DNA of 64,000 bases from Escherichia coli (GTDB lineage: Bacteria; Pseudomonadota; Gammaproteobacteria; Enterobacterales; Enterobacteriaceae). Made by a program: the position numbers and the translations under genes. Location: assembly GCF_046105845.1 (NCBI RefSeq), contig NZ_CP151004.1; one strand, 5' to 3'. Positions within the stretch are counted from its first letter, which is position 1. Every line of letters begins with the position of its first letter. Of this stretch, positions 12,462-40,331 are shown piece by piece. The notes below the pieces were generated by a model that was not told the origin of the DNA, did no database searches, and saw nothing but the letters and a program-made list of their open reading frames with translations.

Positions 12462-12462
12462 C

Positions 12463-13485
12463 GTGACCTTCTGGAGTATTTTACGCCAACGCTGCTGGGG
12501 GCTGGTGCTCGTGGTGGCGGGCGTCTGTGTGATTACGTTTATTATCTCGCATCTTATCCCCGGCGATCCGGCGCGGTTACTGGCGGGTGACCGCGCCAGC
12601 GATGCTATCGTGGATAATATTCGCCAGCAACTGGGACTGGACCAGCCACTGTACGTACAGTTTTACCGCTACGTCAGCGACCTGTTTCAGGGTGACCTGG
12701 GAACATCCATTCGTACCGGGCGTCCGGTGCTGGAAGAGTTGCGCATATTTTTCCCGGCGACGCTGGAACTGGCTTTTTGTGCCCTGCTGCTGGCACTCCT
12801 GATTGGCATCCCGCTGGGCATACTCTCTGCAGTCTGGCGAAATCGCTGGCTGGATCATCTGGTGCGAATAATGGCCATTACCGGAATCTCCACACCTGCG
12901 TTCTGGCTTGGGCTGGGCGTCATTGTGCTGTTTTATGGTCATCTGCAAATTCTTCCCGGCGGCGGAAGGCTTGATGACTGGCTGGATCCACCAACGCACG
13001 TTACCGGCTTTTATCTGCTCGATGCGCTGCTTGAAGGCAACGGTGAAGTCTTCTTCAATGCGCTGCAACATCTCATCTTACCGGCATTAACGCTGGCGTT
13101 CGTTCACCTGGGAATTGTCGCTCGCCAGATCCGCTCAGCGATGCTGGAACAATTGAGTGAAGACTACATTCGTACCGCCCGGGCCAGCGGCTTGCCCGGC
13201 TGGTATATCGTTTTATGTTATGCGCTACCCAATGCGTTGATCCCCTCGATTACCGTATTGGGGCTGGCGCTGGGCGATTTGTTGTATGGCGCAGTGCTCA
13301 CCGAAACCGTTTTTGCCTGGCCCGGAATGGGGGCATGGGTAGTGACATCAATACAGGCGCTCGACTTCCCTGCGGTGATGGGATTTGCCGTCGTGGTTTC
13401 GTTTGCTTATGTGCTGGTGAACCTGGTGGTGGATTTGCTCTATTTGTGGATTGATCCGCGTATCGGACGTGGAGGTGGTGAATGA
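12463..13485 (+). CDS. ddpB: D,D-dipeptide ABC transporter permease
   Basis: Track ORF (GTG start), DppB-like membrane protein. Confidence 0.92.
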   Translation: MTFWSILRQRCWGLVLVVAGVCVITFIISHLIPGDPARLLAGDRASDAIVDNIRQQLGLDQPLYVQFYRYVSDLFQGDLGTSIRTGRPVLEELRIFFPATLELAFCALLLALLIGIPLGILSAVWRNRWLDHLVRIMAITGISTPAFWLGLGVIVLFYGHLQILPGGGRLDDWLDPPTHVTGFYLLDALLEGNGEVFFNALQHLILPALTLAFVHLGIVARQIRSAMLEQLSEDYIRTARASGLPGWYIVLCYALPNALIPSITVLGLALGDLLYGAVLTETVFAWPGMGAWVVTSIQALDFPAVMGFAVVVSFAYVLVNLVVDLLYLWIDPRIGRGGGE

Positions 13486-14378
13486 TGCTAAGCGAGGAAA
13501 CGTCAGCCGTGCGCCCACCAAAACAAACGCGATTTAACGGTGCAAAACTGGTATGGATGCTGAAAGGCAGCCCGCTTACCGTGACCGGCGCAGTCATCAT
13601 TGTATTAATGCTACTGATGATGATTTTTTCACCGTGGCTGGCGACGCATGATCCCAACGCCATTGATTTAACCGCCCGCCTTTTGCCGCCTTCTGCGGCG
13701 CACTGGTTTGGCACCGATGAAGTGGGACGCGATCTGTTTAGCCGCGTACTGGTCGGCAGTCAGCAATCAATTCTCGCCGGATTAGTGGTAGTCGCCATTG
13801 CAGGTATGATGGGGTCGCTACTCGGGTGTCTATCCGGTGTGCTTGGCGGACGCGCAGACGCGATTATCATGCGCATCATGGACATTATGCTGTCGATTCC
13901 TTCGCTGGTGCTGACAATGGCACTGGCAGCCGCTCTCGGTCCGAGTTTGTTTAACGCCATGCTGGCGATTGCTATTGTGCGAATTCCCTTTTATGTGCGC
14001 CTGGCGCGGGGGCAAACATTAGTTGTTCGCCAGTACACTTACGTTCAGGCGGCGAAAACCTTTGGTGCGTCACGCTGGCATCTGATCAACTGGCATATTT
14101 TACGTAACTCCCTGCCGCCGCTGATTGTGCAGGCATCGCTGGATATCGGTAGCGCGATTTTAATGGCCGCCACGTTGGGATTTATTGGCCTGGGTGCTCA
14201 ACAACCGAGTGCTGAATGGGGGGCGATGGTGGCGAATGGTCGCAACTATGTGCTCGATCAATGGTGGTATTGCGCATTTCCGGGGGCAGCGATTTTGCTT
14301 ACCGCCGTCGGGTTTAATCTCTTTGGCGATGGTATTCGCGATCTGCTTGACCCGAAAGCAGGAGGAAAGCAGTCATGA
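13482..14378 (+). CDS. ddpC: D,D-dipeptide ABC transporter permease
   Basis: Track ORF; start overlaps ddpB stop by 4 nt. Confidence 0.92.
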   Translation: MMLSEETSAVRPPKQTRFNGAKLVWMLKGSPLTVTGAVIIVLMLLMMIFSPWLATHDPNAIDLTARLLPPSAAHWFGTDEVGRDLFSRVLVGSQQSILAGLVVVAIAGMMGSLLGCLSGVLGGRADAIIMRIMDIMLSIPSLVLTMALAAALGPSLFNAMLAIAIVRIPFYVRLARGQTLVVRQYTYVQAAKTFGASRWHLINWHILRNSLPPLIVQASLDIGSAILMAATLGFIGLGAQQPSAEWGAMVANGRNYVLDQWWYCAFPGAAILLTAVGFNLFGDGIRDLLDPKAGGKQS

Positions 14379-15361
14379 CCCAACCCGTTCTGGACATTCA
14401 ACAGCTGCATTTGAGTTTCCCCGGTTTTAACGGCGACGTTCACGCGCTCAACAATGTGTCATTGAAAATCAACCGCGGTGAAATTGTCGGTCTGGTGGGA
14501 GAATCCGGCTCGGGTAAATCAGTCACTGCAATGTTGATTATGCGTCTGCTACCGACGGGCAGTTATTGCGTACATCGGGGGCAGATTTCACTGCTGGGAG
14601 AAGATGCTCTTAACGCTCGGGAAAAGCAGCTTCGTCAGTGGCGCGGCGCACGAGTGGCGATGATCTTTCAGGAACCGATGACCGCCCTTAATCCGACACG
14701 TCGAATAGGTCTTCAGATGATGGACGTGATCCGCCATCATCAGCCAATAAGTCGTCGGGAAGCCAGAGCTAAAGCGATTGCCCTGCTGGAAGAGATGCAA
14801 ATCCCGGATGCCGTGGAAGTTATGTCGCGCTATCCGTTTGAGCTTTCAGGTGGTATGCGCCAGCGGGTAATGATTGCGCTGGCATTCTCCTGCGAGCCGC
14901 AATTGATTATTGCCGACGAACCGACTACGGCGCTGGACGTCACGGTACAGTTGCAGGTACTGCGTCTGCTTAAACATAAAGCCCGCGCCAGTGGAACTGC
15001 GGTACTGTTCATCAGCCATGATATGGCCGTGGTGTCGCAACTGTGCGATAGCGTTTACGTGATGTATGCCGGAAGCGTGATTGAGAGCGGCGTGACGGCA
15101 GACGTTATCCATCATCCCCGGCATCCGTATACCATTGGTTTGCTGCAATGCGCACCGGAACATGGAATACCGCGCCAGCCATTACCCGCCATTCCAGGGA
15201 CGGTACCAAACCTCACCCATTTGCCTGACGGCTGCGCTTTTCGCGATCGTTGCTATGCGGCAGGTGCACAGTGTGAAAACGTCCCGGCGCTGACAGCGTG
15301 TGGTGACAACAACCACCGCTGCGCCTGTTGGTATCCTCAGCAGGAGGTCATTAGTGTCTGA
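14375..15361 (+). CDS. ddpD: D,D-dipeptide ABC transporter ATP-binding protein
   Basis: Track ORF; Walker A GESGSGKS; overlaps ddpC stop by 4 nt. Confidence 0.92.
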   Translation: MTQPVLDIQQLHLSFPGFNGDVHALNNVSLKINRGEIVGLVGESGSGKSVTAMLIMRLLPTGSYCVHRGQISLLGEDALNAREKQLRQWRGARVAMIFQEPMTALNPTRRIGLQMMDVIRHHQPISRREARAKAIALLEEMQIPDAVEVMSRYPFELSGGMRQRVMIALAFSCEPQLIIADEPTTALDVTVQLQVLRLLKHKARASGTAVLFISHDMAVVSQLCDSVYVMYAGSVIESGVTADVIHHPRHPYTIGLLQCAPEHGIPRQPLPAIPGTVPNLTHLPDGCAFRDRCYAAGAQCENVPALTACGDNNHRCACWYPQQEVISV

Positions 15362-16280
15362 CACGTTATTAACGTTACGCGACGTCCATATCAATTTCCC
15401 TGCCCGAAAAAACTGGCTTGGTAAAACTACGGAACATGTTCATGCCATCAATGGTATTGATTTACAGATCCGTCGTGGTGAAACCTTAGGGATCGTCGGT
15501 GAGTCAGGCTGCGGCAAAAGCACCCTCGCACAGCTTTTAATGGGTATGCTGCAACCGAGCCACGGGCAGTACATCCGTTCAGGATCACAACGCATTATGC
15601 AGATGGTGTTTCAGGACCCGCTCTCTTCGCTTAATCCGCGCTTACCGGTGTGGCGCATCATCACGGAACCGCTCTGGATTGCTAAGCGTAGTAGTGAACA
15701 ACAGCGGCGAGCGTTGGCAGAGGAGCTGGCTGTGCAGGTGGGTATTCGTCCGGAGTATCTCGACCGCTTGCCTCATGCGTTCTCAGGCGGGCAGCGGCAA
15801 CGTATCGCCATTGCCAGAGCACTCTCTTCGCAGCCTGACGTGATTGTGCTTGATGAACCAACCTCGGCGCTGGATATCTCCGTGCAGGCGCAGATCCTCA
15901 ATTTACTGGTAACGCTACAGGAAAATCGCGAGCTGACTTATGTGCTGATTTCACACAATGTCTCGGTGATACGTCATATGAGCGATCGGGTGGCGGTGAT
16001 GTATCTCGGACAGATTGTGGAACTAGGAGACGCGCAACAGGTGCTGACAGCTCCGGCACATCCATACACCCGATTATTGCTGGATTCCCTCCCCGCCATT
16101 GATAAACCGCTGGAGGAAGAATGGGCATTACGTAAAACGGATCTGCCGGGAAACCGCACGTTGCCACAAGGCTGTTTTTTCCGCGAACGCTGCCCTCTGG
16201 CAACCCACGGATGTGAAGTCCGGCAATCATTAACAATAAGGGAGGACGGACGTGAGATCCGGTGCTGGCGGGCGCTGTAG
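15354..16280 (+). CDS. ddpF: D,D-dipeptide ABC transporter ATP-binding protein
   Basis: Track ORF 15300..16280; start placed at in-frame Val codon (VSDTLLTL...) overlapping ddpD stop, giving ~308 aa; Walker A GESGCGKS; exact start uncertain. Confidence 0.88.
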   Translation: MSDTLLTLRDVHINFPARKNWLGKTTEHVHAINGIDLQIRRGETLGIVGESGCGKSTLAQLLMGMLQPSHGQYIRSGSQRIMQMVFQDPLSSLNPRLPVWRIITEPLWIAKRSSEQQRRALAEELAVQVGIRPEYLDRLPHAFSGGQRQRIAIARALSSQPDVIVLDEPTSALDISVQAQILNLLVTLQENRELTYVLISHNVSVIRHMSDRVAVMYLGQIVELGDAQQVLTAPAHPYTRLLLDSLPAIDKPLEEEWALRKTDLPGNRTLPQGCFFRERCPLATHGCEVRQSLTIREDGREIRCWRAL

Positions 16281-16281
16281 A

Positions 16282-16334
16282 GACGCTAACAACGCATCAG
16301 GCAATCACGCGCCTGACGCGTCATCCGGCAACGC
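16282..16334. repeat. REP-like palindromic element between convergent ddpF and osmC
   Basis: CGCATCAGGC ... GCGCCTGACGCGTCATCCGGC motifs resembling REP consensus. Confidence 0.45.
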
Positions 16335-16335
16335 T

Positions 16336-16767
16336 TTATGATTTCAACTGGTAATCAAGCGTAATTTCAGCTTTCAGTACCTGAGAAACCGGGCATCCTG
16401 CTTTTGCTTTCTGGATAATGCCGTCAAAGGTGGCTGCATCAATACCCGGCACCGCAACTTCGCTCTTCAGTGCGATTTTAGTAATCGCAAAACCGGCATC
16501 CACTTTATCCAGCGACACATCGGCGGTGGTATCAATCGATGTTGGCGTGAATCCCGCTTCCCCCAGCATTAATGAAAGCGCCATTGAGAAACATGCGGCA
16601 TGCGCTGCGCCAATCAGTTCTTCAGGGTTGGTTCCTTTTTCGCCTTCAAAACGCGTGTTAAATCCATACGGCTGTTGGTTCAGCACGCCGCTCTCGGTGG
16701 ATACTGTTCCCTTCCCGCGTTTGATATCGCCTTCCCAGTGTGCCTGACCTTTCTTATGGATTGTCAT
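16336..16767 (-). CDS. osmC: Osmotically inducible peroxiredoxin OsmC, 143 aa
   Basis: Track ORF; recognisable OsmC sequence. Confidence 0.96.
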   Translation of the reverse strand: MTIHKKGQAHWEGDIKRGKGTVSTESGVLNQQPYGFNTRFEGEKGTNPEELIGAAHAACFSMALSLMLGEAGFTPTSIDTTADVSLDKVDAGFAITKIALKSEVAVPGIDAATFDGIIQKAKAGCPVSQVLKAEITLDYQLKS

Positions 16768-17111
16768 TGTTGCTCTCCTGTGGGTTTAAAAAGGAAATTA
16801 TAGACTACGTGAGAAACAGCACGAGGATAAGCAGGATATTCCGAATGAAATCCGGCGAAAACATTATTTCTGTACTTAAATTAAATTCCCACAATAGATA
16901 ACGGGGAATATATAATCCAAAAGATATTGTATCAATATTAATCGGATCACCCCAATTACAATCCCTATGAATATCATGGTGTTAAAATATAAAAATTATC
17001 AACCAGGACTAATCTTAACAACGAAGCGGCAAATATTTGCCATGCTGAATGTGCTTTATAAATCTGCGATCCGTAGCAGACACCATAAATACACAGACAC
17101 GGAGAATCACT

Positions 17112-17327
17112 ATGTTTACTTATTATCAGGCAGAAAATTCAACAGCAGAACCCGCTCTGGTTAATGCCATTGAGCAAGGCCTTCGGGCAGAGCACGGTGT
17201 TGTCACTGAAGATGACATTCTCATGGAGCTGACCAAATGGGTGGAAGCTTCTGATAACGACATCCTCAGTGATATCTACCAGCAAACGATCAATTATGTG
17301 GTCAGTGGCCAGCACCCTACGCTTTAA
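17112..17327 (+). CDS. bdm: Biofilm-dependent modulation protein, 71 aa
   Basis: Track ORF 17049..17327; start at internal Met MFTYYQAENSTAEPALV... Confidence 0.88.
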   Translation: MFTYYQAENSTAEPALVNAIEQGLRAEHGVVTEDDILMELTKWVEASDNDILSDIYQQTINYVVSGQHPTL

Positions 17328-17428
17328 GGTGCTATGCTTGATCGGCAACCTAATTTAGGGGTTTAGCACGTGTTTCTTCGCTACGGCGATGTTGTCCTTA
17401 AAACTAGCAACAGGATTGAGGAGTTAAA

Positions 17429-17566
17429 ATGAAATCGAACCGTCAGGCACGTCATATTCTTGGACTGGACCATAAAATTTCTAACCAGCGCAAAATAGTT
17501 ACCGAAGGTGACAAATCCAGCGTGGTAAATAACCCAACCGGCAGAAAACGCCCCGCTGAAAAGTAA
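17429..17566 (+). CDS. sra: Stationary-phase-induced ribosome-associated protein (S22), 45 aa
   Basis: Short ORF read from sequence ([45 protein letters not shown]) with GAGG-type RBS; too short for the ORF track; between bdm and maeA. Confidence 0.82.
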
Positions 17567-17722
17567 TTCATAACCATCAGTCCTCAATGACGATTAAACA
17601 CCATTGCCTGCGCAATGGTGTTTTTGTTTTTATCTGCTTTATACTTGGGGCCGACGCCCTGGCGGTAAAGCAAAGACGATAAAAGCGTGCCAGGGATGGA
17701 TATTCAAAAAAGAGTGAGTGAC

Positions 17723-19420
17723 ATGGAACCAAAAACAAAAAAACAGCGTTCGCTTTATATCCCTTACGCTGGCCCTGTACTGCTGGAATTTCCGTTGTTG
17801 AATAAAGGCAGCGCCTTCAGCATGGAAGAACGCCGTAACTTCAACCTGCTGGGGTTACTGCCGGAAGTGGTCGAAACCATCGAAGAGCAAGCGGAACGAG
17901 CATGGATCCAGTATCAGGGATTCAAAACCGAAATCGACAAACACATCTACCTGCGTAACATCCAGGACACTAACGAAACCCTCTTCTACCGTCTGGTAAA
18001 CAATCATCTTGATGAGATGATGCCTGTTATTTATACCCCAACCGTCGGCGCAGCCTGTGAGCGTTTTTCTGAGATCTACCGCCGTTCACGCGGCGTGTTT
18101 ATCTCTTACCAGAACCGCCACAATATGGACGATATTCTGCAAAACGTGCCGAACCATAATATTAAAGTGATTGTGGTGACTGACGGTGAACGTATTCTGG
18201 GGCTTGGTGACCAGGGCATCGGCGGGATGGGCATTCCGATCGGTAAACTGTCACTCTATACCGCCTGTGGCGGCATCAGCCCGGCGTATACCCTTCCGGT
18301 GGTGCTGGATGTCGGGACGAACAACCAACAGCTGCTTAACGATCCGCTGTATATGGGCTGGCGTAATCCGCGTATCACTGACGACGAATACTATGAATTC
18401 GTTGATGAATTTATCCAGGCTGTGAAACAACGCTGGCCGGACGTGCTGTTGCAGTTTGAAGACTTCGCACAAAAAAATGCGATGCCGTTACTTAACCGCT
18501 ATCGCAATGAAATTTGTTCCTTTAACGATGACATTCAGGGCACTGCGGCGGTAACAGTCGGCACCCTGATCGCAGCCAGCCGCGCGGCAGGTGGTCAGTT
18601 AAGCGAGAAAAAAATCGTCTTCCTTGGCGCAGGTTCAGCGGGATGCGGCATTGCCGAAATGATCATCGCCCAGACCCAGCGCGAAGGATTAAGCGAGGAA
18701 GCGGCGCGGCAGAAAGTCTTTATGGTCGATCGCTTTGGCCTGCTGACCGACAAGATGCCGAACCTGCTGCCTTTCCAGACCAAACTGGTGCAGAAGCGCG
18801 AAAACCTCAGTGACTGGGATACCAACAGCGATGTGCTGTCACTGCTGGATGTGGTGCGCAATGTAAAACCAGATATTCTGATTGGCGTCTCAGGACAGAC
18901 CGGGCTGTTTACGGAAGAGATCATCCGTGAGATGCATAAACACTGTCCGCGTCCGATCGTGATGCCGCTGTCTAACCCGACTTCACGCGTGGAAGCCACA
19001 CCGCAGGACATTATCGCCTGGACTGAAGGTAACGCGCTGGTCGCCACTGGCAGTCCGTTTAACCCAGTGGTATGGAAAGATAAAATCTACCCTATCGCCC
19101 AGTGTAACAACGCCTTTATTTTCCCGGGCATCGGGCTGGGCGTTATTGCTTCCGGTGCGTCACGTATCACCGATGAGATGCTGATGTCGGCAAGTGAAAC
19201 GCTTGCTCAGTATTCGCCGCTGGTGCTGAACGGCGAAGGTCTGGTACTACCGGAACTGAAAGATATTCAGAAAGTCTCCCGCGCAATTGCGTTTGCGGTT
19301 GGCAAAATGGCGCAGCAGCAAGGCGTGGCGGTGAAAACCTCCGCCGAAGCTCTGCAACAGGCCATTGATGATAATTTCTGGCAAGCCGAATACCGCGACT
19401 ACCGCCGTACCTCCATCTAA
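17723..19420 (+). CDS. maeA: NAD-dependent malic enzyme, 565 aa
   Basis: Track ORF 17687..19420; start at internal Met [18 protein letters not shown]...; an earlier in-frame Met gives a slightly longer form. Confidence 0.94.
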
Positions 19421-19427
19421 GCCTGCG

Positions 19428-19455
19428 CCCGGTAGTGAAGGCTACCGGGCAATTT
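19428..19455 (+). terminator. Terminator-like hairpin after maeA (CCCGGTAG / CTACCGGG stem)
   Basis: 8-bp stem, 6-nt loop, followed by T/C-rich tract. Confidence 0.45.
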
Positions 19456-19553
19456 CCCTCTCCCTTTTTCAGATCTCATCCATACTGGGTAGTGGCGAAT
19501 AAATCTCATTTGCCTCACCTGCTATGCAGAACATCATCCGAAAAGGAGGAACT

Positions 19554-20564
19554 ATGAAGGCTGCAGTTGTTACGAAGGATCATCATGTTGACGTTACGGA
19601 TAAAACACTGCGCTCACTGAAACATGGCGAAGCCCTGCTGAAAATGGAGTGTTGTGGTGTATGTCATACCGATCTTCATGTTAAGAATGGCGATTTTGGT
19701 GACAAAACCGGCGTAATTCTGGGCCATGAAGGCATCGGTGTGGTGGCAGAAGTTGGCCCAGGTGTCACCTCATTAAAACCAGGCGATCGTGCCAGCGTGG
19801 CGTGGTTTTACGAAGGATGCGGTCATTGCGAATACTGTAACAGTGGTAACGAAACGCTCTGCCGTTCAGTTAAAAATGCCGGATACAGCGTTGATGGCGG
19901 GATGGCGGAAGAGTGCATCGTGGTCGCTGATTACGCGGTAAAAGTGCCAGATGGTCTGGACTCGGCGGCGGCCAGCAGCATTACCTGTGCGGGGGTCACC
20001 ACCTACAAAGCCGTTAAGCTGTCAAAAATTCGTCCAGGGCAGTGGATTGCTATCTACGGTCTTGGCGGTCTGGGTAACCTCGCCCTGCAATACGCGAAGA
20101 ATGTCTTTAACGCCAAAGTGATCGCCATTGATGTCAATGATGAGCAGTTAAAACTGGCAACCGAAATGGGCGCTGATTTAGCGATTAACTCACGCACTGA
20201 AGACGCCGCCAAAATTGTGCAGGAAAAAACCGGTGGCGCTCACGCCGCGGTGGTGACAGCAGTAGCTAAAGCTGCGTTTAACTCGGCGGTTGATGCTGTA
20301 CGAGCAGGCGGTCGTGTTGTGGCTGTCGGTCTGCCGCCGGAGTCAATGAGCCTGGACATCCCACGCCTTGTGCTGGATGGTATTGAAGTGGTCGGTTCGC
20401 TGGTCGGCACGCGCCAGGATCTAACCGAAGCCTTCCAGTTTGCCGCCGAAGGCAAAGTGGTGCCGAAAGTCGCCCTGCGTCCGTTAGCGGACATCAACAC
20501 CATCTTTACTGAGATGGAAGAAGGCAAAATCCGTGGCCGTATGGTGATTGATTTCCGCCGCTAA
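19554..20564 (+). CDS. adhP: Zinc-dependent ethanol-active alcohol dehydrogenase, 336 aa
   Basis: Track ORF 19524..20564; start at Met [12 protein letters not shown] after AAGGAGG RBS; GHEGIG and Zn-ligand Cys motifs. Confidence 0.95.
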
Positions 20565-20680
20565 GAGGCCTTTGCTGCGACTGCCATGTTCGGGTCGCAG
20601 CATCGCACACTCTCCAACATGAAATGGCTAAATGGATTATTGTTGCGTAGGAAGGAACGCTACTGAGAGTAAAGACACTA

Positions 20681-20965
20681 ATGAAAATGGCCAATCATCC
20701 CCGCCCGGGGGACATTATTCAGGAATCACTGGACGAACTTAATGTCAGCCTGCGCGAGTTTGCCAGAGCAATGGAAATTGCGCCCTCAACGGCAAGCCGA
20801 TTGCTGACCGGAAAAGCAGCTTTGACACCAGAAATGGCGATTAAACTTTCCGTGGTGATCGGCAGTTCGCCGCAAATGTGGCTGAATCTGCAAAACGCCT
20901 GGAGTCTGGCAGAGGCAGAAAAAACGGTGGATGTGTCGCGATTACGCCGTCTGGTTACGCAATAA
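20681..20965 (+). CDS. yddM: HigA/VapI-family (XRE-type HTH) putative transcriptional regulator, 94 aa
   Basis: Track ORF; HTH-like segment; position between adhP and fdnI. Confidence 0.8.
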
Positions 20966-20996
20966 AAAAAATGGCGCTTCTTAAAGCGCCATTTTC
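20964..20996. terminator. Bidirectional rho-independent terminator shared by yddM (+) and fdnI (-)
   Basis: A-run, ATGGCGCTT / AAGCGCCAT perfect stem, T-run; lies between convergent genes. Confidence 0.6.
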
Positions 20997-21016
20997 AGCT
21001 TAAAGTTCAAAAGAGA

Positions 21017-31138: not shown

Positions 31139-32527
31139 ATGGCACTGCAAAATGAGAAAACTAGTCGTTATCTTTTGCGCGACTGGAAACCAGAAAATCC
31201 GGCCTTCTGGGAAAATAAAGGAAAACACATTGCACGAAGAAACCTCTGGATATCAGTCAGTTGTCTACTTCTTGCCTTCTGTGTCTGGATGCTATTTAGC
31301 GCAGTTACTGTTAATCTCAATAAAATCGGTTTTAATTTCACTACCGATCAACTCTTTTTATTAACCGCATTACCCTCCGTTTCTGGCGCATTATTGCGTG
31401 TCCCCTACTCCTTTATGGTGCCTATATTTGGTGGACGCCGATGGACGGTTTTTAGTACTGCAATCCTGATTATTCCTTGCGTCTGGCTCGGAATTGCCGT
31501 GCAGAATCCGAATACTCCTTTTGGGATATTTATCGTTATCGCTTTGCTATGCGGTTTTGCAGGTGCGAACTTTGCTTCGAGCATGGGCAATATCAGTTTC
31601 TTCTTCCCAAAAGCCAAACAAGGGAGCGCACTTGGGATTAATGGCGGATTAGGAAACTTAGGTGTAAGTGTGATGCAGCTGGTTGCACCGCTGGTCATTT
31701 TTGTACCCGTATTTGCCTTTCTCGGCGTCAATGGCGTACCGCAGGCCGACGGTTCGGTGATGTCGCTGGCGAATGCCGCATGGATTTGGGTGCCATTACT
31801 GGCGATTGCCACGATCGCCGCCTGGTCAGGGATGAATGATATCGCCAGTTCACGCGCGTCAATTGCCGACCAGCTGCCAGTGTTACAACGCCTGCATCTC
31901 TGGCTGCTGAGCCTGCTTTACCTTGCCACCTTCGGTTCGTTTATCGGTTTTTCTGCGGGTTTTGCCATGCTGGCGAAAACTCAGTTCCCTGATGTGAATA
32001 TTCTGCGCCTGGCGTTCTTTGGCCCATTTATTGGTGCCATCGCGCGGTCGGTTGGTGGTGCTATTTCCGATAAATTCGGCGGAGTGCGGGTGACGTTGAT
32101 CAACTTCATTTTTATGGCGATTTTCAGCGCCCTGCTGTTCCTTACCTTACCGGGCACAGGCTCCGGTAATTTCATCGCATTTTACGCCGTATTTATGGGG
32201 TTGTTTCTGACCGCAGGTCTGGGAAGTGGTTCTACTTTCCAGATGATCGCCGTCATCTTTCGCCAGATAACCATTTATCGGGTGAAGATGAAAGGCGGTA
32301 GTGATGAGCAAGCTCAGAGAGAAGCCGTCACCGAAACGGCGGCGGCTCTGGGCTTTATCTCAGCCATTGGCGCAGTGGGCGGCTTTTTCATTCCGCAGGC
32401 GTTTGGCATGTCGCTCAATATGACCGGCTCTCCGGTAGGCGCGATGAAAGTGTTTTTAATCTTCTACATCGTTTGTGTGCTGCTGACCTGGCTGGTTTAT
32501 GGTCGGCGGAAGTTCAGCCAAAAATAA
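31139..32527 (+). CDS. narU: Nitrate/nitrite transporter NarU (MFS), 462 aa
   Basis: Track ORF 31097..32527; start at Met MALQNEKTSRYLLRDW... Confidence 0.94.
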   Translation: MALQNEKTSRYLLRDWKPENPAFWENKGKHIARRNLWISVSCLLLAFCVWMLFSAVTVNLNKIGFNFTTDQLFLLTALPSVSGALLRVPYSFMVPIFGGRRWTVFSTAILIIPCVWLGIAVQNPNTPFGIFIVIALLCGFAGANFASSMGNISFFFPKAKQGSALGINGGLGNLGVSVMQLVAPLVIFVPVFAFLGVNGVPQADGSVMSLANAAWIWVPLLAIATIAAWSGMNDIASSRASIADQLPVLQRLHLWLLSLLYLATFGSFIGFSAGFAMLAKTQFPDVNILRLAFFGPFIGAIARSVGGAISDKFGGVRVTLINFIFMAIFSALLFLTLPGTGSGNFIAFYAVFMGLFLTAGLGSGSTFQMIAVIFRQITIYRVKMKGGSDEQAQREAVTETAAALGFISAIGAVGGFFIPQAFGMSLNMTGSPVGAMKVFLIFYIVCVLLTWLVYGRRKFSQK

Positions 32528-32534
32528 GAGATCG

Positions 32535-32605
32535 ATGCCTGACACGTCTTATCAGGCTACAACCGTGTCGCACCCGACAAGGCATCAGATCCCAATTCAT
32601 TCCTG
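32535..32605. repeat. REP-like nested palindromes in narU-narZ intergenic region
   Basis: GCCTGACACGTCTTATCAGGC and flanking GATGCCT...AGGCATC inverted repeats. Confidence 0.35.
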
Positions 32606-32621
32606 GAGCAGGAGTTATGTC

Positions 32622-35600
32622 ATGAGTAAACTTTTGGATCGCTTTCGCTATTTCAAACAAAAGGGCGAAACCTTTGCCGATGGTCACGGACAGGTGATGC
32701 ATAGCAACCGCGACTGGGAGGACAGCTATCGCCAGCGTTGGCAATTCGACAAAATCGTGCGTTCCACCCACGGTGTTAACTGTACAGGCTCCTGTAGCTG
32801 GAAAATCTACGTTAAAAATGGTCTGGTGACCTGGGAAATCCAACAGACCGACTACCCGCGCACTCGCCCTGACCTGCCCAATCATGAACCTCGCGGCTGC
32901 CCGCGTGGCGCAAGTTACTCCTGGTATCTTTACAGCGCTAACCGCCTGAAATACCCGCTCATTCGCAAACGACTGATTGAACTGTGGCGCGAAGCCCTCA
33001 AACAACACAGCGATCCGGTACTGGCGTGGGCATCGATTATGAACGATCCGCAAAAGTGCCTGAGCTACAAACAAGTGCGTGGGCGCGGCGGGTTTATCCG
33101 CTCCAACTGGCAGGAACTAAACCAGCTGATTGCCGCCGCTAACGTCTGGACCATCAAAACCTACGGCCCGGATCGCGTTGCCGGTTTCTCGCCGATCCCG
33201 GCGATGTCGATGGTTTCTTACGCCGCCGGAACACGTTATCTTTCACTATTAGGTGGCACCTGTTTAAGCTTCTACGACTGGTATTGCGACCTGCCGCCCG
33301 CCTCGCCGATGACCTGGGGCGAGCAAACCGACGTGCCAGAATCTGCCGACTGGTATAACTCCAGCTACATCATCGCCTGGGGGTCTAACGTACCGCAGAC
33401 ACGTACGCCGGACGCCCACTTCTTTACCGAAGTACGCTACAAAGGCACTAAAACCATCGCCATTACCCCTGACTACTCTGAAGTGGCCAAATTGTGCGAC
33501 CAGTGGCTGGCACCAAAACAAGGCACTGATAGCGCCTTGGCGATGGCAATGGGCCATGTGATTTTAAAAGAGTTTCATCTCGATAATCCCAGCGACTACT
33601 TTATCAACTACTGCCGCCGCTACAGCGACATGCCGATGCTGGTAATGCTGGAACCTCGCGACGATGGCAGCTACGTACCCGGGCGCATGATCCGCGCGTC
33701 TGACCTGGTAGATGGACTGGGCGAAAGCAACAATCCGCAGTGGAAAACCGTGGCGGTTAATACCGCAGGTGAACTGGTGGTGCCGAACGGTTCGATTGGT
33801 TTTCGCTGGGGAGAAAAAGGCAAATGGAATCTGGAATCTATTGCCGCCGGTACGGAAACCGAATTGTCATTAACCCTGCTTGGTCAACATGACGCCGTTG
33901 CAGGCGTGGCCTTCCCCTACTTTGGCGGCATTGAAAATCCGCATTTTCGTAGCGTAAAACATGATCCTGTCCTGGTGCGTCAATTACCCGTTAAAAACCT
34001 GACATTAGCCGATGGCAGCACCTGTCCGGTGGTTAGCGTTTATGATTTGGTACTGGCGAATTATGGCCTCGATCGCGGGCTGGAAGATGAAAACAGCGCG
34101 AAAGATTACGCTGAAATCAAACCGTACACCCCAGCCTGGGGTGAGCAAATTACCGGCGTGCCGCGCCAGTATATTGAAACCATCGCCCGTGAATTTGCCG
34201 ATACCGCCCATAAAACGCATGGGCGCTCGATGATTATCCTCGGTGCTGGCGTCAACCATTGGTATCACATGGACATGAACTACCGTGGGATGATCAACAT
34301 GCTGATCTTCTGCGGTTGTGTCGGGCAAAGCGGTGGCGGCTGGGCACACTATGTCGGTCAGGAAAAACTGCGCCCGCAAACCGGCTGGTTGCCACTGGCC
34401 TTTGCGCTCGACTGGAACCGACCACCGCGCCAGATGAACAGCACCTCGTTTTTCTACAATCATTCCAGCCAATGGCGCTATGAAAAAGTCTCTGCTCAGG
34501 AGTTACTTTCACCGATCGCCGATGCCAGTAAGTACAGCGGTCATCTGATTGATTTCAACGTTCGCGCCGAACGTATGGGCTGGCTACCTTCTGCGCCGCA
34601 GCTGGGGCGTAACCCGCTCGGGATTAAAGCTGAAGCCGACAAGGCCGGATTATCCCCCACAGAATTTACCGCCCAGGCGCTGAAATCGGGCGATTTACGC
34701 ATGGCCTGCGAACAACCAGATAGCGGCAGCAATCATCCGCGTAATTTGTTTGTCTGGCGTTCTAACCTGCTTGGCTCCTCCGGCAAAGGCCACGAGTATA
34801 TGCAGAAGTATCTGCTGGGGACCGAAAGCGGGATTCAGGGCGAGGAACTCGGTGCCAGCGACGGGATCAAACCGGAAGAAGTCGAGTGGCAAACTGCGGC
34901 GATTGAAGGCAAGCTCGACCTGCTGGTGACGCTCGACTTCCGTATGTCCAGTACCTGCCTGTTCTCCGATATCGTTCTGCCCACCGCCACCTGGTACGAA
35001 AAAGACGATATGAACACCTCGGATATGCATCCGTTTATTCATCCGCTTTCTGCGGCGGTCGATCCGGCGTGGGAATCACGCAGCGACTGGGAAATCTACA
35101 AAGGTATCGCCAAAGCCTTTTCGCAAGTGTGCGTGGGCCATCTTGGCAAAGAAACCGACGTGGTATTACAACCACTGCTGCATGACTCTCCGGCAGAACT
35201 CTCACAGCCGTGTGAAGTGCTCGACTGGCGCAAAGGCGAATGCGATCTGATTCCAGGTAAAACTGCGCCCAATATTGTGGCGGTGGAACGCGACTACCCT
35301 GCTACCTATGAACGCTTTACCTCGCTCGGGCCATTGATGGACAAACTTGGCAACGGCGGTAAAGGGATTTCGTGGAATACCCAGGATGAAATCGATTTCC
35401 TCGGCAAACTCAACTACACCAAGCGTGAAGGCCCGGCACAGGGGCGTCCGCTGATTGACACCGCCATTGACGCATCAGAAGTGATTCTGGCGCTGGCACC
35501 GGAAACCAACGGTCATGTTGCAGTCAAAGCGTGGCAGGCGCTGGGCGAGATAACCGGACGCGAACATACCCATCTGGCGCTGCACAAAGAGGACGAGAAG

Positions 35601-36362
35601 ATTCGCTTTCGCGATATTCAGGCGCAGCCACGTAAAATCATCTCCAGCCCCACATGGTCTGGTCTGGAAAGCGATCACGTCTCCTACAACGCCGGATATA
35701 CCAACGTTCATGAGTTAATTCCGTGGCGCACGCTGTCGGGACGCCAGCAGCTCTATCAGGATCATCCGTGGATGCGTGCTTTTGGTGAAAGCCTGGTGGC
35801 TTATCGCCCGCCTATCGACACCCGTAGCGTCAGTGAAATGCGCCAGATACCGCCAAACGGCTTCCCGGAAAAAGCACTTAACTTCCTGACGCCGCATCAG
35901 AAATGGGGCATTCACTCAACCTACAGTGAAAACCTGCTAATGCTGACCCTCTCTCGCGGTGGACCGATTGTCTGGATCAGCGAAACCGATGCCCGTGAAC
36001 TGACCATTGTCGATAACGACTGGGTGGAAGTGTTTAACGCCAACGGCGCGCTGACTGCCCGCGCGGTGGTCAGCCAACGTGTACCGCCGGGTATGACCAT
36101 GATGTATCACGCTCAGGAACGCATTATGAATATTCCTGGTTCGGAAGTAACTGGCATGCGCGGCGGCATTCATAACTCGGTCACCCGCGTTTGTCCGAAA
36201 CCAACGCATATGATTGGCGGTTACGCGCAGCTGGCCTGGGGCTTTAATTACTACGGCACCGTCGGCTCGAACCGTGACGAATTCATCATGATCCGCAAGA
36301 TGAAGAACGTTAACTGGCTGGATGATGAAGGTCGCGATCAGGTACAGGAGGCGAAAAAATGA
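32622..36362 (+). CDS. narZ: Respiratory nitrate reductase Z alpha subunit (Mo-bisMGD), 1246 aa
   Basis: Track ORF 32499..36362; start at Met MSKLLDRFRYFKQKGETFADGHGQ after GGAG RBS. Confidence 0.96.
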   Translation: MSKLLDRFRYFKQKGETFADGHGQVMHSNRDWEDSYRQRWQFDKIVRSTHGVNCTGSCSWKIYVKNGLVTWEIQQTDYPRTRPDLPNHEPRGCPRGASYSWYLYSANRLKYPLIRKRLIELWREALKQHSDPVLAWASIMNDPQKCLSYKQVRGRGGFIRSNWQELNQLIAAANVWTIKTYGPDRVAGFSPIPAMSMVSYAAGTRYLSLLGGTCLSFYDWYCDLPPASPMTWGEQTDVPESADWYNSSYIIAWGSNVPQTRTPDAHFFTEVRYKGTKTIAITPDYSEVAKLCDQWLAPKQGTDSALAMAMGHVILKEFHLDNPSDYFINYCRRYSDMPMLVMLEPRDDGSYVPGRMIRASDLVDGLGESNNPQWKTVAVNTAGELVVPNGSIGFRWGEKGKWNLESIAAGTETELSLTLLGQHDAVAGVAFPYFGGIENPHFRSVKHDPVLVRQLPVKNLTLADGSTCPVVSVYDLVLANYGLDRGLEDENSAKDYAEIKPYTPAWGEQITGVPRQYIETIAREFADTAHKTHGRSMIILGAGVNHWYHMDMNYRGMINMLIFCGCVGQSGGGWAHYVGQEKLRPQTGWLPLAFALDWNRPPRQMNSTSFFYNHSSQWRYEKVSAQELLSPIADASKYSGHLIDFNVRAERMGWLPSAPQLGRNPLGIKAEADKAGLSPTEFTAQALKSGDLRMACEQPDSGSNHPRNLFVWRSNLLGSSGKGHEYMQKYLLGTESGIQGEELGASDGIKPEEVEWQTAAIEGKLDLLVTLDFRMSSTCLFSDIVLPTATWYEKDDMNTSDMHPFIHPLSAAVDPAWESRSDWEIYKGIAKAFSQVCVGHLGKETDVVLQPLLHDSPAELSQPCEVLDWRKGECDLIPGKTAPNIVAVERDYPATYERFTSLGPLMDKLGNGGKGISWNTQDEIDFLGKLNYTKREGPAQGRPLIDTAIDASEVILALAPETNGHVAVKAWQALGEITGREHTHLALHKEDEKIRFRDIQAQPRKIISSPTWSGLESDHVSYNAGYTNVHELIPWRTLSGRQQLYQDHPWMRAFGESLVAYRPPIDTRSVSEMRQIPPNGFPEKALNFLTPHQKWGIHSTYSENLLMLTLSRGGPIVWISETDARELTIVDNDWVEVFNANGALTARAVVSQRVPPGMTMMYHAQERIMNIPGSEVTGMRGGIHNSVTRVCPKPTHMIGGYAQLAWGFNYYGTVGSNRDEFIMIRKMKNVNWLDDEGRDQVQEAKK

Positions 36363-37903
36363 AAATACGTTCGCAAGTCGGCATGGTGCTTAACCTCGAT
36401 AAATGTATCGGCTGCCATACCTGTTCGGTGACCTGTAAAAACGTCTGGACCGGACGCGAAGGCATGGAGTACGCATGGTTTAACAACGTCGAAACCAAAC
36501 CGGGCATTGGTTATCCGAAAAACTGGGAAGATCAGGAAGAGTGGCAAGGCGGCTGGGTGCGTGATGTGAATGGCAAGATCCGCCCGCGTCTGGGCAGCAA
36601 GATGGGCGTAATAACCAAAATCTTCGCCAACCCGGTGGTGCCGCAGATTGATGATTACTACGAACCTTTCACCTTCGACTACGAACATTTGCATAGCGCA
36701 CCGGAAGGCAAACATATCCCTACTGCTCGCCCGCGTTCACTGATTGACGGCAAACGGATGGACAAAGTGATCTGGGGGCCAAACTGGGAAGAACTGCTGG
36801 GCGGCGAATTTGAAAAACGCGCCCGCGACCGCAACTTCGAGGCCATGCAAAAGGAGATGTACGGGCAGTTTGAAAACACCTTCATGATGTACCTGCCGCG
36901 CTTGTGCGAACACTGCCTCAATCCCAGTTGCGTGGCGACCTGCCCAAGCGGCGCTATCTACAAACGCGAAGAAGACGGCATTGTGCTGATCGATCAGGAT
37001 AAATGCCGTGGCTGGCGTTTGTGCATTAGCGGTTGTCCGTACAAAAAAATCTACTTCAACTGGAAAAGCGGCAAGTCAGAAAAATGTATCTTCTGTTACC
37101 CACGAATTGAGTCAGGCCAACCCACCGTGTGCTCAGAAACCTGCGTGGGTCGCATCCGGTATCTGGGCGTGCTGCTTTACGACGCCGACCGCATCGAGGA
37201 AGCGGCGAGCACCGAGCGCGAAGTTGACCTCTATGAACGCCAGTGCGAAGTGTTCCTCGATCCGCACGATCCCTCAGTGATCGAAGAAGCCCTGAAACAA
37301 GGTATTCCACAAAACGTGATTGAAGCTGCCCAGCGTTCGCCAGTCTACAAAATGGCGATGGACTGGAAACTGGCGTTACCGCTGCACCCTGAATACCGCA
37401 CCCTGCCGATGGTCTGGTACGTTCCTCCGCTGTCACCGATTCAGTCTTACGCTGATGCGGGCGGTTTGCCGAAAAGCGAAGGCGTGCTCCCAGCCATCGA
37501 GAGCCTGCGTATTCCTGTGCAATATCTCGCCAATATGTTAAGTGCTGGCGATACCGGTCCGGTACTGCGGGCGCTAAAACGGATGATGGCGATGCGCCAC
37601 TATATGCGTTCACAAACCGTGGAAGGCGTTACCGATACCCGCGCCATTGACGAAGTAGGCCTGAGCGTCGCCCAGGTCGAAGAGATGTATCGCTACCTCG
37701 CCATTGCCAACTATGAAGACCGTTTTGTCATTCCAACCAGTCATCGGGAAATGGCGGGCGATGCCTTCGCAGAACGCAATGGCTGCGGTTTTACCTTTGG
37801 CGACGGTTGCCACGGCTCGGACAGCAAATTCAACCTGTTCAACAGTAGCCGTATCGATGCCATCAACATCACCGAAGTGCGCGACAAAGCGGAGGGCGAA
37901 TAA
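36359..37903 (+). CDS. narY: Respiratory nitrate reductase Z beta subunit (Fe-S), 514 aa
   Basis: Track ORF; Cys-cluster motifs; overlaps narZ stop. Confidence 0.96.
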   Translation: MKIRSQVGMVLNLDKCIGCHTCSVTCKNVWTGREGMEYAWFNNVETKPGIGYPKNWEDQEEWQGGWVRDVNGKIRPRLGSKMGVITKIFANPVVPQIDDYYEPFTFDYEHLHSAPEGKHIPTARPRSLIDGKRMDKVIWGPNWEELLGGEFEKRARDRNFEAMQKEMYGQFENTFMMYLPRLCEHCLNPSCVATCPSGAIYKREEDGIVLIDQDKCRGWRLCISGCPYKKIYFNWKSGKSEKCIFCYPRIESGQPTVCSETCVGRIRYLGVLLYDADRIEEAASTEREVDLYERQCEVFLDPHDPSVIEEALKQGIPQNVIEAAQRSPVYKMAMDWKLALPLHPEYRTLPMVWYVPPLSPIQSYADAGGLPKSEGVLPAIESLRIPVQYLANMLSAGDTGPVLRALKRMMAMRHYMRSQTVEGVTDTRAIDEVGLSVAQVEEMYRYLAIANYEDRFVIPTSHREMAGDAFAERNGCGFTFGDGCHGSDSKFNLFNSSRIDAINITEVRDKAEGE

Positions 37904-38598
37904 TGCAGATCCTCAAAGTGATCGGCCTGTTGATGGAGTATCCGGACGAGCTGTTGTGGGAATGTAAGGAGGACGCGCTGGCGTTGATCCGCCGCGACGC
38001 ACCGATGCTTACGGATTTTACCCGCAACCTGCTTAACGCGCCGCTGCTGGATAAACAGGCCGAATGGTGCGAAGTGTTTGACCGTGGACGTACCACATCG
38101 CTGCTGCTGTTCGAACATGTTCATGCCGAGTCCCGCGATCGCGGCCAGGCAATGGTGGACCTGCTGGCGGAGTATGAAAAGGTCGGCCTGCAGTTGGATT
38201 GTCGAGAACTGCCCGATTATCTGCCGCTGTATCTGGAGTACTTAAGCGTACTGCCGGACGATCAGGCGAAAGAAGGCTTGCTCAACGTTGCGCCGATCCT
38301 CGCCCTGCTTGGCGGACGCTTAAAACAACGCGAGGCTCCGTGGTATTCGTTGTTTGACGCCCTGCTGCATCTGGCGGGAAGTACACTTTCAAGTGACAGT
38401 GTCACAAAACAAGTAAACAACGAGGAGCGCGATGACACCCGCCAGGCGCTTGATGCAGTGTGGGAAGAGGAGCAGGTGAAGTTTATTGAAGATAACGCCA
38501 CGGCGTGTGACAGCTCGCCGCTTAATCAATATCAGCGACGCTTTAGCCAGGATGTCGCGCCGCAATATGTCGACATCAGTGCGGGAGGTGGGAAATGA
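37903..38598 (+). CDS. narW: Nitrate reductase Z assembly chaperone (delta), 231 aa
   Basis: Track ORF; start overlaps narY stop by 1 nt (TAATG). Confidence 0.94.
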
Positions 38599-39275
38599 TT
38601 CAGTATCTGAACGTCTTTTTTTATGATATCTACCCGTACATTTGTGCGACAGTGTTTTTCCTCGGCAGCTGGCTGCGCTACGACTACGGGCAGTATACCT
38701 GGCGCGCCTCCTCGAGTCAGATGCTCGATAAACGCGGGATGGTGATATGGTCGAATCTGTTCCATATCGGCATTTTGGGGATTTTCTTCGGGCACCTGTT
38801 CGGCATGTTAACGCCGCACTGGATGTACGCGTGGTTTTTGCCAGTGGCAGCGAAACAACTAATGGCGATGGTGCTCGGCGGTATTTGCGGTGTGTTGACG
38901 TTGATTGGCAGCGCAGGACTGCTGTGGCGCAGGCTGACTAATCAGCGTGTGCGTGCCACTTCCACTACGCCGGATATTATCATCATGAGCATTTTGCTGA
39001 TCCAGTGTCTGCTGGGGCTAAGTACCATACCGTTTTCAGCACAGTATCCTGATGGTAGCGAAATGATGAAGCTGGTGGGTTGGGCGCAAAGCATTGTCAC
39101 TTTCCGTGGTGGATCGTCAGAGATGCTCAACGGCGTAGCGTTCGTCTTCCGCTTGCATCTGGTGTTGGGAATGACCATCTTCCTGCTCTTCCCGTTCACC
39201 AGACTGGTGCATGTGTGGAGCGCGCCGTTTGAGTACTTTACTCGTCGGTATCAGATTGTGCGTTCGCGGCGATAA
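38595..39275 (+). CDS. narV: Respiratory nitrate reductase Z gamma subunit (cytochrome b), 226 aa
   Basis: Track ORF; overlaps narW stop by 4 nt. Confidence 0.95.
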
Positions 39276-39354
39276 TTTTCACCCTGGCCGGATAGCCCTT
39301 CGCTCTCCGGCCACTTGCAGGCTATGATAGTTCTCCAGCCACAGGAGAACGTTA

Positions 39355-40248
39355 ATGAAACCGCAGGTTTACCACGTCGATGCTTTTACCTCACAACCGT
39401 TTCGCGGCAATTCTGCCGGTGTTGTTTTCCCCGCCGATAATCTCAGTGAAGCGCAAATGCAGCTTATCGCCCGCGAATTAGGTCATTCCGAAACTGCTTT
39501 TCTGCTGCACAGCGACGACAGCGATGTGCGCATCCGCTACTTTACGCCAACAGTTGAAGTGCCGATTTGTGGTCACGCGACAGTAGCTGCGCACTATGTA
39601 CGTGCGAAGGTGTTAGGTTTAGGAAATTGCACGGTCTGGCAAACGTCACTGGCAGGAAAACATCGCGTGACTATCGAAAATCACAATGATGATTATCGTA
39701 TTTCACTGGAACAAGGTCCGCCGGGCTTTGAACCGCCGCTGGAGGATGAAGTACGCGCGGCGATTATCAACGCATTGCATCTTACTGAAGACGATATTCT
39801 GCCGGGTTTGCCGATCCAGGTCGCGACGACCGGGCATTCTAAAGTGATGATCCCGTTGAAGCCGGAAGTGGATATCGACGCTCTTTCGCCTGACCTTAAT
39901 GCGCTGACCGCTATCAGTAAACAGATTGGCTGCAATGGTTTCTTCCCGTTCCAGATCCGCCCAGGCAAAAACGAAACCGACGGTCGTATGTTCTCGCCTG
40001 CGATTGGTATTGTGGAAGATCCGGTGACTGGCAATGCCAATGGCCCGATGGGTGCATGGTTGGTACATCACAACGTATTGCCCCACGATGGCAACGTGTT
40101 GTGTGTTAAAGGCCATCAGGGGCGCGCATTGGGGCGTGACGGCGTGATTGAAGTAACGGTGACAATTCGCGATAACCAACCGGAGAAAGTCACCATTTCT
40201 GGCACAGCGGTGATTTTGTTTCATGCCGAATGGGCAATTGAATTCTGA
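39355..40248 (+). CDS. yddE: PhzF-family isomerase-like protein, 297 aa
   Basis: Track ORF; ATG start. Confidence 0.92.
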   Translation: MKPQVYHVDAFTSQPFRGNSAGVVFPADNLSEAQMQLIARELGHSETAFLLHSDDSDVRIRYFTPTVEVPICGHATVAAHYVRAKVLGLGNCTVWQTSLAGKHRVTIENHNDDYRISLEQGPPGFEPPLEDEVRAAIINALHLTEDDILPGLPIQVATTGHSKVMIPLKPEVDIDALSPDLNALTAISKQIGCNGFFPFQIRPGKNETDGRMFSPAIGIVEDPVTGNANGPMGAWLVHHNVLPHDGNVLCVKGHQGRALGRDGVIEVTVTIRDNQPEKVTISGTAVILFHAEWAIEF

Positions 40249-40255
40249 AACCGTT

Positions 40256-40320
40256 GCCTGATGCGCTTCGCTTATCAGGTCTATGTATGCCGGATAAGGC
40301 GTTTACGCCGCATCCGGCAA
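40256..40320. repeat. REP/BIME element (two palindromic units) between convergent yddE and nhoA
   Basis: GCCTGATGCGCTTCGCTTATCAGG and GCCGGATAAGGCGTTTACGCCGCATCCGGC, classic REP sequences. Confidence 0.75.
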
Positions 40321-40331
40321 CCTGACATAAA

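Follow-up and report, generated by a model that had tools for sequence, protein, structure and literature searches.

Two polycistronic operons whose stop and start codons overlap lie in the window, by which we mean the whole 64,000-nucleotide stretch of Escherichia coli DNA that was analysed. The first is ddpXABCDF, whose gene order and identity match the annotated E. coli ddp genes (RefSeq, K-12 annotation). The second is narZYWV, where the order narU-narZ-narY-narW-narV is present as in annotated E. coli, and the window is 98.4% identical to strain AST215 over an aligned stretch of 35.3 kb that includes narZYWV. Both operons encode multi-subunit machines, namely the ABC importer DdpBCDF, and nitrate reductase Z (NarZ, NarY and NarV) together with the chaperone NarW. 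The genes, their starts and Shine-Dalgarno (SD) sequences, and the bases read at each junction are collected in Table 1.

Table 1. Genes, start sites and junctions of the ddp and narZYWV operons in the window.
Feature	Coordinates	Strand	Start	SD sequence	SD dG (kcal/mol)	Junction with preceding gene	Remarks
ddpB	12463..13485	+					permease; stop TGA 13483-13485 within the ATGA junction; ORF list, RefSeq/K-12 annotation
ddpC	13482..14378	+	ATG 13482	GGAGG 13471-13475	-10.6	ATGA 13482-13485 (-4)	
ddpD	14375..15361	+	ATG 14375	AGGAGG 14360-14365	-10.3	ATGA 14375-14378 (-4)	
ddpF	15354..16280	+	GTG 15354	AGGAGG 15342-15347	-11.0	GTGTCTGA 15354-15361 (-8)	ddpD stop at 15359-15361
ddpF longest-ORF extension (spurious)	15300..15353	+					18 codons; inside the ddpD 3' end, other frame
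narZ	32622..36362	+	ATG 32622	AGGAG 32610-32614			RefSeq/K-12 annotation
narZ longest-ORF extension (spurious)	32499..32621	+					41 codons; covers the final 29 nt of narU plus the narU-narZ spacer (94 nt)
narY	36359..37903	+	ATG 36359	AGGAGG 36346-36351	-10.3	ATGA 36359-36362 (-4)	
narW	37903..38598	+	ATG 37903	GGAGG 37891-37895	-10.0	TAATG 37901-37905 (-1)	base 37903 common to stop TAA (37901-37903) and start
narV	38595..39275	+	ATG 38595	GGAGG 38584-38588	-11.6	ATGA 38595-38598 (-4)	

The initial annotation had reported overlaps of 4-8 nt at ddpB/ddpC, ddpC/ddpD and ddpD/ddpF, of 4 nt at narZ/narY and narW/narV and of 1 nt at narY/narW, and all six were found as described when the junctions were read base by base. 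Four are ATGA, one is TAATG and one is GTGTCTGA, and all fit the spacing motifs of the "spatially coupled" class of cistron junctions, which are NTGA for -4, TAATG or TGATG for -1, and NTGNNTGA for -8. The other features of the class are likewise present: the partners are same-strand neighbours within an operon, the spacings are -4, -1 or -8, an SD sequence lies in the upstream gene, and the spacing is conserved. The description of the layout as expected operon architecture also holds, in that three overlaps, -4, -1 and -8, are enriched in E. coli and form the genome-wide norm, with 707 of 2,987 co-directional pairs spaced between -8 and +6 nt (PMC10666635; PMC12548453).

Each downstream SD lies within the final codons of the preceding gene. 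The pairing energies at the six downstream starts run from -10.0 to -11.6 kcal/mol. Ranked against every NTG triplet on the plus strand of the window (median -2.4), they fall within the top 0.1-0.5%. Junction SDs of this strength would also support independent initiation.

Conservation was assessed in 80 loci of other Enterobacterales for the nar junctions and in Citrobacter for ddp. Among the homologous nar junctions, 217 of 229 are spaced at exactly -4, -1 or -8, and 226 of 229 fall within -8 to +2, which suggests selection on proximity itself. An SD energy of -6 or below accompanies 85-100% of the homologous narY, narW and narV starts, against a background of 7%. NarZ-type operons are nearly fixed at -4/-1/-4 (narZ/Y in 21 of 22 loci, narY/W in 24 of 24, narW/V in 22 of 24) and enterobacterial NarG-type operons at -4/-4/-1, while across lineages the type of a given nar junction shifts among -4, -1, -8 and +2. 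A protein search with DdpF gave no genera other than Escherichia and Citrobacter in its best 120 hits, and the ddp comparison therefore comprises five loci, of which four are intact and from Citrobacter while the fifth (L086) is a degraded, E. coli-like copy. The four intact loci have ddpB/C at -4, ddpC/D at -4 or -1, and ddpD/F at -8, the two forms of ddpC/D differing by one C>G change (TCATGA>TGATGA). To judge from the sequences compared, the conserved trait at the nar junctions is tight stop-start proximity together with an SD, the exact motif being interconverted by single substitutions, and this tight conservation is not due to chance. Conserved proximity with an SD is in keeping with selection for making the subunits of a complex in a coupled or proportional way.

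It is very likely that these are standard spatially coupled junctions in two polycistronic operons, at which termination-reinitiation would operate, and that the short starts of ddpF and narZ are real. From the behaviour of the junction class we infer that translation is coupled at the ddp and nar junctions. A ribosome ending the upstream gene would be held by the SD and would re-initiate a few bases away, so that synthesis of the downstream subunit would be tied to that of the upstream one, and independent initiation at that SD would add to reinitiation to a varying extent. The class behaviour was established on native E. coli -4 pairs, of which four of the five tested were coupled and one, bioBF, was not; removal of the SD lowered reinitiation in four of the five (Huber et al. 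2019, Nat Commun 10:4006; PMC6728339).

The principal alternative, which we regard as unlikely, is that genome compaction and the ease with which ATGA originates account for the overlaps, and that fresh 30S subunits start at a strong internal SD with no dependence on upstream translation. It draws on the rank of all six SDs among the strongest in the window, on the uncoupled bioBF pair, on a review in which the -4 overlap is held to be perhaps abundant through easy evolution (PMC12548453), and on the drift of junction type between lineages. Gene-specific, though indirect, evidence comes from INRI-seq, a cell-free assay on isolated transcripts spanning -30 to +153, with 30 nt of upstream sequence, whose counts per million (CPM) are not scaled to the genome-wide distribution. 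On this scale ddpD gives a strong de novo start (77-120 CPM), and since it initiates strongly alone in vitro at least the ddpC/D junction does not need coupling. The other five of the six isolated starts are weak or silent despite their SDs: ddpC gives 0-9.5, narY 6-13, narW 0-9 and narV 8-14 CPM, and ddpF 0 CPM, though the DdpF N-terminus is detected in vivo; narZ, for comparison, reaches 77-105 CPM. Also weighing against independent initiation are the coupling of most tested E. coli pairs, the confinement of nearly all homologous nar junctions to spacings between -8 and +2, and the 4.5-fold over-representation of subunits from heteromeric complexes among E. coli pairs at -8 to +10 nt (PMC10666635). 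In vivo, Ribo-RET values are 0 for every gene of the ddp and narZ operons (INRI-seq Table S2), which were unexpressed in those conditions.

A second form of dependence on the upstream gene, coupling by mRNA unfolding, is improbable. Here the ribosome translating the upstream gene would open a masked SD or start codon rather than re-initiate, a mechanism documented for other E. coli pairs (PMC6728339). For ddpC, ddpD and narV, fair pairing of the start region is indeed predicted (mean 0.64-0.78 over -15 to +3), but in narY (0.30), narW (0.52) and ddpF (0.56) pairing there does not exceed that of the flanking sequence, and ddpD, one of the paired starts, initiates well on an isolated transcript. 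Folding predictions for the -99 to +30 fragments were heterogeneous: mean pairing probabilities around the starts span 0.30-0.78 against 0.53-0.65 for the whole fragments, with no consistent sequestration of SD or start across the six and no conserved masking helix identified. When the whole window was scanned against Rfam, the fdnG SECIS element was the sole match; the junctions and the narU-narZ spacer had none.

A mechanical ORF list begins ddpF at GTG 15300 and narZ at ATG 32499, whereas the RefSeq and K-12 starts are shorter by 18 and 41 codons, respectively; the initial annotation had preferred the shorter ones, and rightly so. GTG 15354 and ATG 32622 are the right starts, and the longer ORFs are accidental open frame, arising because the window has TTA for TAA before the ddpF GTG and 13 extra nucleotides upstream of narZ. 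In K-12 the TAA stands directly before the GTG, at -3, and amounts to a synonymous ATT>ATA change in ddpD. The narZ long frame is broken in K-12 by the 13-nt indel, the extra bases of the window lying in the narU-narZ spacer, and roughly two in three E. coli records (~3,560 of 5,421) have the short form of that spacer.

For ddpF, GTG 15300 has no SD (dG -1.7, compared with -11.0 for GTG 15354), and Citrobacter has an ATG exactly where E. coli has the GTG. The TRAINSPOTTER tables (Tables S1/S2) contain an N-terminal peptide, MSDTLLTLR, that matches the K-12 GTG start, and the ddpF of the window encodes an identical N-terminus; narZ, narY and narW did not occur among the table entries listed. 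For narZ, ATG 32499 has a weak SD (dG -4.0) at a spacing of 1 nt that is not usable, and the 94-nt narU-narZ spacer carries a REP-like hairpin. The homologous ATG is conserved in position in 70 of 70 loci and is itself the longest-ORF start of the alpha subunit in 46 of them, the extensions in the others varying from 15 to 177 nt. In cell-free INRI-seq, initiation peaks at the annotated narZ ATG in each of the five replicates (77-105 CPM), and residues 1-139 of NarZ align with residues 1-139 of crystallised NarG (1q16_A, E = 7e-87), so that the two proteins are collinear from residue 1. Neither gene shows the ribosome-binding site and open frame conserved in relatives by which N-terminally extended proteoforms are recognised. 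That the true gene products are the extended DdpF and the extended NarZ of the longest ORFs has next to no probability: both frames are open to those codons in the window strain, but neither upstream codon has a usable SD, the K-12 stop and the indel close the frames elsewhere, and the extended NarZ would require reading through the narU stop and the hairpin. Longest-ORF calling over-extends not only ddpF and narZ but also ddpA, dosP and narU in the window strain, and start calling is better based on SD, overlap context and conservation.

The narZ start itself has a -4 configuration with a two-codon mini-ORF, ATG TCA TGA at 32617-32625, whose stop overlaps the narZ ATG. Of 22 NarZ-type loci, which come from several genera, 17 have the mini-ORF ATG and one more has GTG, whereas the ATG occurs in none of 48 NarG-type loci; further upstream, the sequence has diverged among the NarZ-type loci. 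One locus naturally carries ACG in place of this ATG. That the mini-ORF serves as a functional "leader" adjusting narZ initiation, and is not an accident of the conserved SD-to-start spacer, is very improbable. The mini-ORF ATG, at -5 of narZ, was also considered as a used start and rejected: the SD is only ~1-2 nt away, and INRI-seq gives 19 CPM in one of five replicates, under the calling threshold. A related case is ddpA/ddpB, where Citrobacter has a spacer of 44-48 nt with a hairpin, an SD and an ATG; E. coli has lost the spacer and retains the remnant TAAcGTG without an SD. This loss may have made translation of ddpB in E. coli obligatorily dependent on termination of ddpA.

The ddp and nar overlaps are real and already known; they count as ordinary because they have the commonest bacterial gene-junction layout and have already been tabulated. 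For K-12 the listed spacings are +1 for ddpA/B, -4 for ddpB/C, -4 for ddpC/D and -8 for ddpD/F, and -4 for narZ/Y, -1 for narY/W and -4 for narW/V (Huber et al. 2023, Front Microbiol 14:1291523, Supplementary Table S2). The spacings of the K-12 pairs are identical to those of the window, the strains differing only upstream of the ddpF and narZ starts, and beyond correct annotation the significance is slight. A literature search on narZ translation yielded only a study of EF-P and polarity in narY and a review of regulation, and coupling and start sites are addressed in neither.

Among the closest known systems is also narGHJI, which encodes nitrate reductase A and, like narZYWV, has the order alpha-beta-delta-gamma and three stop/start overlaps with SDs. 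The start of its alpha subunit is homologous to that of narZ (ATGAGYAAR..., MSK(F/L)LDRF), whereas the order of the junctions is swapped, at -4/-4/-1 in narGHJI and -4/-1/-4 in narZYWV, each arrangement being stable within its paralogue across the Enterobacteriaceae. The pairs of Huber et al. (2019) resemble those of ddp and nar in being native and co-directional, in overlapping by ATGA and in having the SD within the upstream gene; in that set, which is without ddp or narZ pairs, coupling was measured and a fragment from -99 to +30 was sufficient. The classical pair is trpB/trpA, named as the first coupled example (PMC6728339), for which coupling was shown experimentally in another operon that has no homology to ddp or nar.

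The six junctions of the ddp (transporter) and narZYWV (nitrate reductase Z) operons were read directly from the window, and the overlaps reported in the initial annotation, 4-8 nt in ddp, 4 nt at narZ/Y and narW/V and 1 nt at narY/W, are confirmed (see table). To score Shine-Dalgarno (SD) sites, the 20 nt preceding every candidate start were paired with the 3' end of 16S rRNA. The six overlapped starts have pairing energies (dG) of -10.0 to -11.6 kcal/mol, with pairing that ends 4-8 nt from the start, which places them in the top 0.1-0.5% of the 3,148 NTG triplets on the plus strand of the window (median -2.4). Homologous narY, narW and narV starts have a dG of -6 or lower in 85-100% of cases, against a background of 7%. 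Other short overlaps occur elsewhere in the window, as does one pair of abutting genes, ydcT/ydcU.

Gene junctions and other features of the window (negative spacing, overlap)
Feature	Sequence	Position	Strand	Spacing (nt)
ddpA stop/ddpB start	TAA C GTG	12459-12465		one base between genes
ddpB/C	ATGA	13482-13485		-4
ddpC/D	ATGA	14375-14378		-4
ddpD/F	GTGTCTGA	15354-15361		-8
ddpF codon 7	ACG	15372-15374
fdnH/fdnI	ATGAGTAA	21663-21670	minus	-8
fdnG, mechanical ORFs		25020-25607, 22560-24971	minus
fdnG, SECIS_3 element		24967-25025	minus
Stretch with porin ORF		26979-30827
narU stop		32525-32527
narU-narZ spacer		32528-32621
Mini-ORF, overlapping narZ ATG as ATGA	ATG TCA TGA	32617-32625
narZ/Y	ATGA	36359-36362		-4
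narY/W	TAATG	37901-37905		-1
narW/V	ATGA	38595-38598		-4
Segment downstream of narW (yddE, nhoA, yddH)		38556-42552
mnaT/ydcZ	ATGA	52372-52375	plus	-4
ydcU/ydcV		55931-55941	minus	-11
ydcT/ydcU	TGAATG	56872/56873	minus	0

The automatic longest-ORF list begins ddpF at GTG 15300 (dG -1.7), and RefSeq and the K-12 annotation begin it at the equivalent of GTG 15354. In K-12 a TAA directly precedes this GTG (an ATT>ATA change, synonymous in the overlapping ddpD frame), and the longer ddpF frame is therefore absent from that strain. Four Citrobacter loci have ATG at the exact position of the E. coli GTG and keep the -8 overlap. Deformylation-assisted N-terminomics of K-12 recovered the DdpF peptide MSDTLLTLR at GTG 1558038, the database start (PMC13245402 Tables S1, S2), and the N-terminus of DdpF in the window is identical. 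Annotation, SD, Citrobacter ATG and peptide agree on the shorter start. The same study (TRAINSPOTTER, PMC13245402) also lists a second, minor, non-cognate K-12 start six codons downstream, at an ACG (peptide MLRDVHINFPAR); codon 7 in the window is the same ACG.

For narZ the longest ORF begins at ATG 32499 (dG -4.0, spacing 1 nt), and the RefSeq and K-12 start is the equivalent of ATG 32622 (dG -6.9). The 41-codon extension would cross the narU stop and the 94-nt spacer, and its frame is broken in K-12 by a 13-nt spacer deletion. This indel is polymorphic: a 151-nt query across the spacer assigned ~1,858 records (at least 95% identity) to the long allele, which the window carries, and ~3,563 (80-95% identity, 138-nt span) to the short K-12 allele, a ratio of ~1:2 in complete E. 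coli genomes. An ATG homologous to 32622 is present in all 70 related narZ and narG loci, being itself the longest-ORF start in 46 and preceded by extensions of 15-177 nt in the other 24. NarZ aligns with crystallised NarG over residues 1-139 of both proteins, and N-terminomics, Ribo-RET and INRI-seq (cell-free initiation profiling) all confirm MSKFLDR as the N-terminus of this paralogue. In INRI-seq of isolated K-12 transcripts, each of the five replicates gave 77-105 CPM at the annotated narZ start (PMC9825163 Table S2). Annotation, SD, homologous ATG and INRI-seq peak thus place narZ, like ddpF, at the shorter start favored by the initial annotation; the junction anatomy and both start calls are almost certainly correct. 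The longest-ORF list also over-extends ddpA (10776 vs 10911), dosP (7635 vs 7659) and narU (TTG 31097 without SD, dG +1.5; annotated ATG 31139, dG -6.2).

The narU-narZ spacer contains a REP-like hairpin (GCCTGA...TCAGGC) within a longer predicted stem; an Rfam scan matched no family to it, and the 3' end of the paralogous narK encodes the sRNA NarS in K-12. The ATG of a two-codon mini-ORF overlapping the narZ start is found in 17 of 22 NarZ-type loci, with GTG in its place in another, and in 0 of 48 NarG-type loci; INRI-seq gave it 19 CPM, in one of five replicates only (PMC9825163).

Conservation was followed in 80 loci with narW or narJ homologues (NarW scan, one genome per species), the four genes being placed by tblastn and each start taken as the codon nearest homologous residue 1. 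The spacing is -4, -1 or -8 at 217 of 229 nar junctions; nine lie at +2 and one each at +1, -13 and +19. Operons of the NarZ type, defined by a NarW identity of at least 60%, are almost fixed at -4/-1/-4 (21/22, 24/24 and 22/24 loci). Most enterobacterial operons of the NarG type have -4/-4/-1, like K-12, and other combinations occur in Providencia, Pectobacterium, Serratia, Hafnia and others. In two Citrobacter loci a single C>G (TCATGA to TGATGA) turns ddpC/D from -4 to -1. Because spacings vary but stay tight and the SDs are conserved, tight proximity with an SD is what is kept, while the exact motif drifts.

Such junctions would allow the SD to retain a terminating ribosome, which would re-initiate a few bases away and so link the synthesis of subunits. 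Coupling probably contributes substantially at most of the six, given the behavior of the class: in a dual-reporter assay four of five native E. coli -4 pairs, none from ddp or nar, were coupled, and SD removal reduced reinitiation in four of five (PMC6728339). Indirect backing comes from isolated -30 to +153 transcripts, on which initiation is weak at ddpC (0-9.5 CPM), narY (6-13), narW (0-9) and narV (8-14) and absent at ddpF (0 CPM; PMC9825163), though the DdpF N-terminus is detected in vivo (PMC13245402). The picture is not uniform, however: ddpD initiates strongly by itself (77-120 CPM; PMC9825163), and folding predictions around the start regions gave no consistent masking across junctions. 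The junction most dependent on reinitiation looks to be E. coli ddpA/ddpB, absent from the original six. Its GTG start is virtually without SD (dG -2.2), and a single base separates the genes, whereas Citrobacter has a 44-48-nt spacer with a GC hairpin, SD and ATG.

The window comes from the E. coli chromosome: 20 kb of it find a match in 5,425 of the 5,426 complete genomes of this species, the best of them at 98.7-98.9% identity. Gene order (gadBC, dosCP, ddpXABCDF, osmC, maeA, adhP, fdnGHI on the minus strand, yddG, narU, narZYWV, yddE) is that of RefSeq strain AST215 and K-12. The in-frame TGA that cuts fdnG into two mechanical ORFs lies at an Rfam SECIS_3 element (84 bits); it is a selenocysteine codon, and the gene is no pseudogene. 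In the window strain an OmpC-like porin ORF (366 aa) is intact, and two ORFs (421 and 425 aa) lie between it and narU; the corresponding stretch carries a single leucine-rich-repeat gene plus a fragment of a pseudogene in AST215, and yddL, yddK and yddJ, short or degraded, in K-12. Downstream of narW (yddE, nhoA, yddH), identity to AST215 falls from ~98% to 95% and then 90%, after which collinearity breaks down around transposase genes of the ISAs1 family; this pattern suggests a segment that is variable or has recombined.

Spacings of -8 to +6 nt account for 707 of the 2,987 co-directional gene pairs of E. coli (24%), the three enriched overlaps are -4, -1 and -8, and short spacings are enriched 4.5-fold for subunits of heteromeric complexes (PMC10666635, PMC12548453). 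By our count from annotation tables and window ORFs, ~9 of ~35 co-directional pairs in the window overlap by 1-11 nt, roughly the genome-wide rate. The ddp and narZYWV overlaps are textbook architecture, as the initial annotation expected, unsurprising and already documented: the same K-12 pairs, with the same spacings, are tabulated in the supplement of a 2023 paper (PMC10666635).
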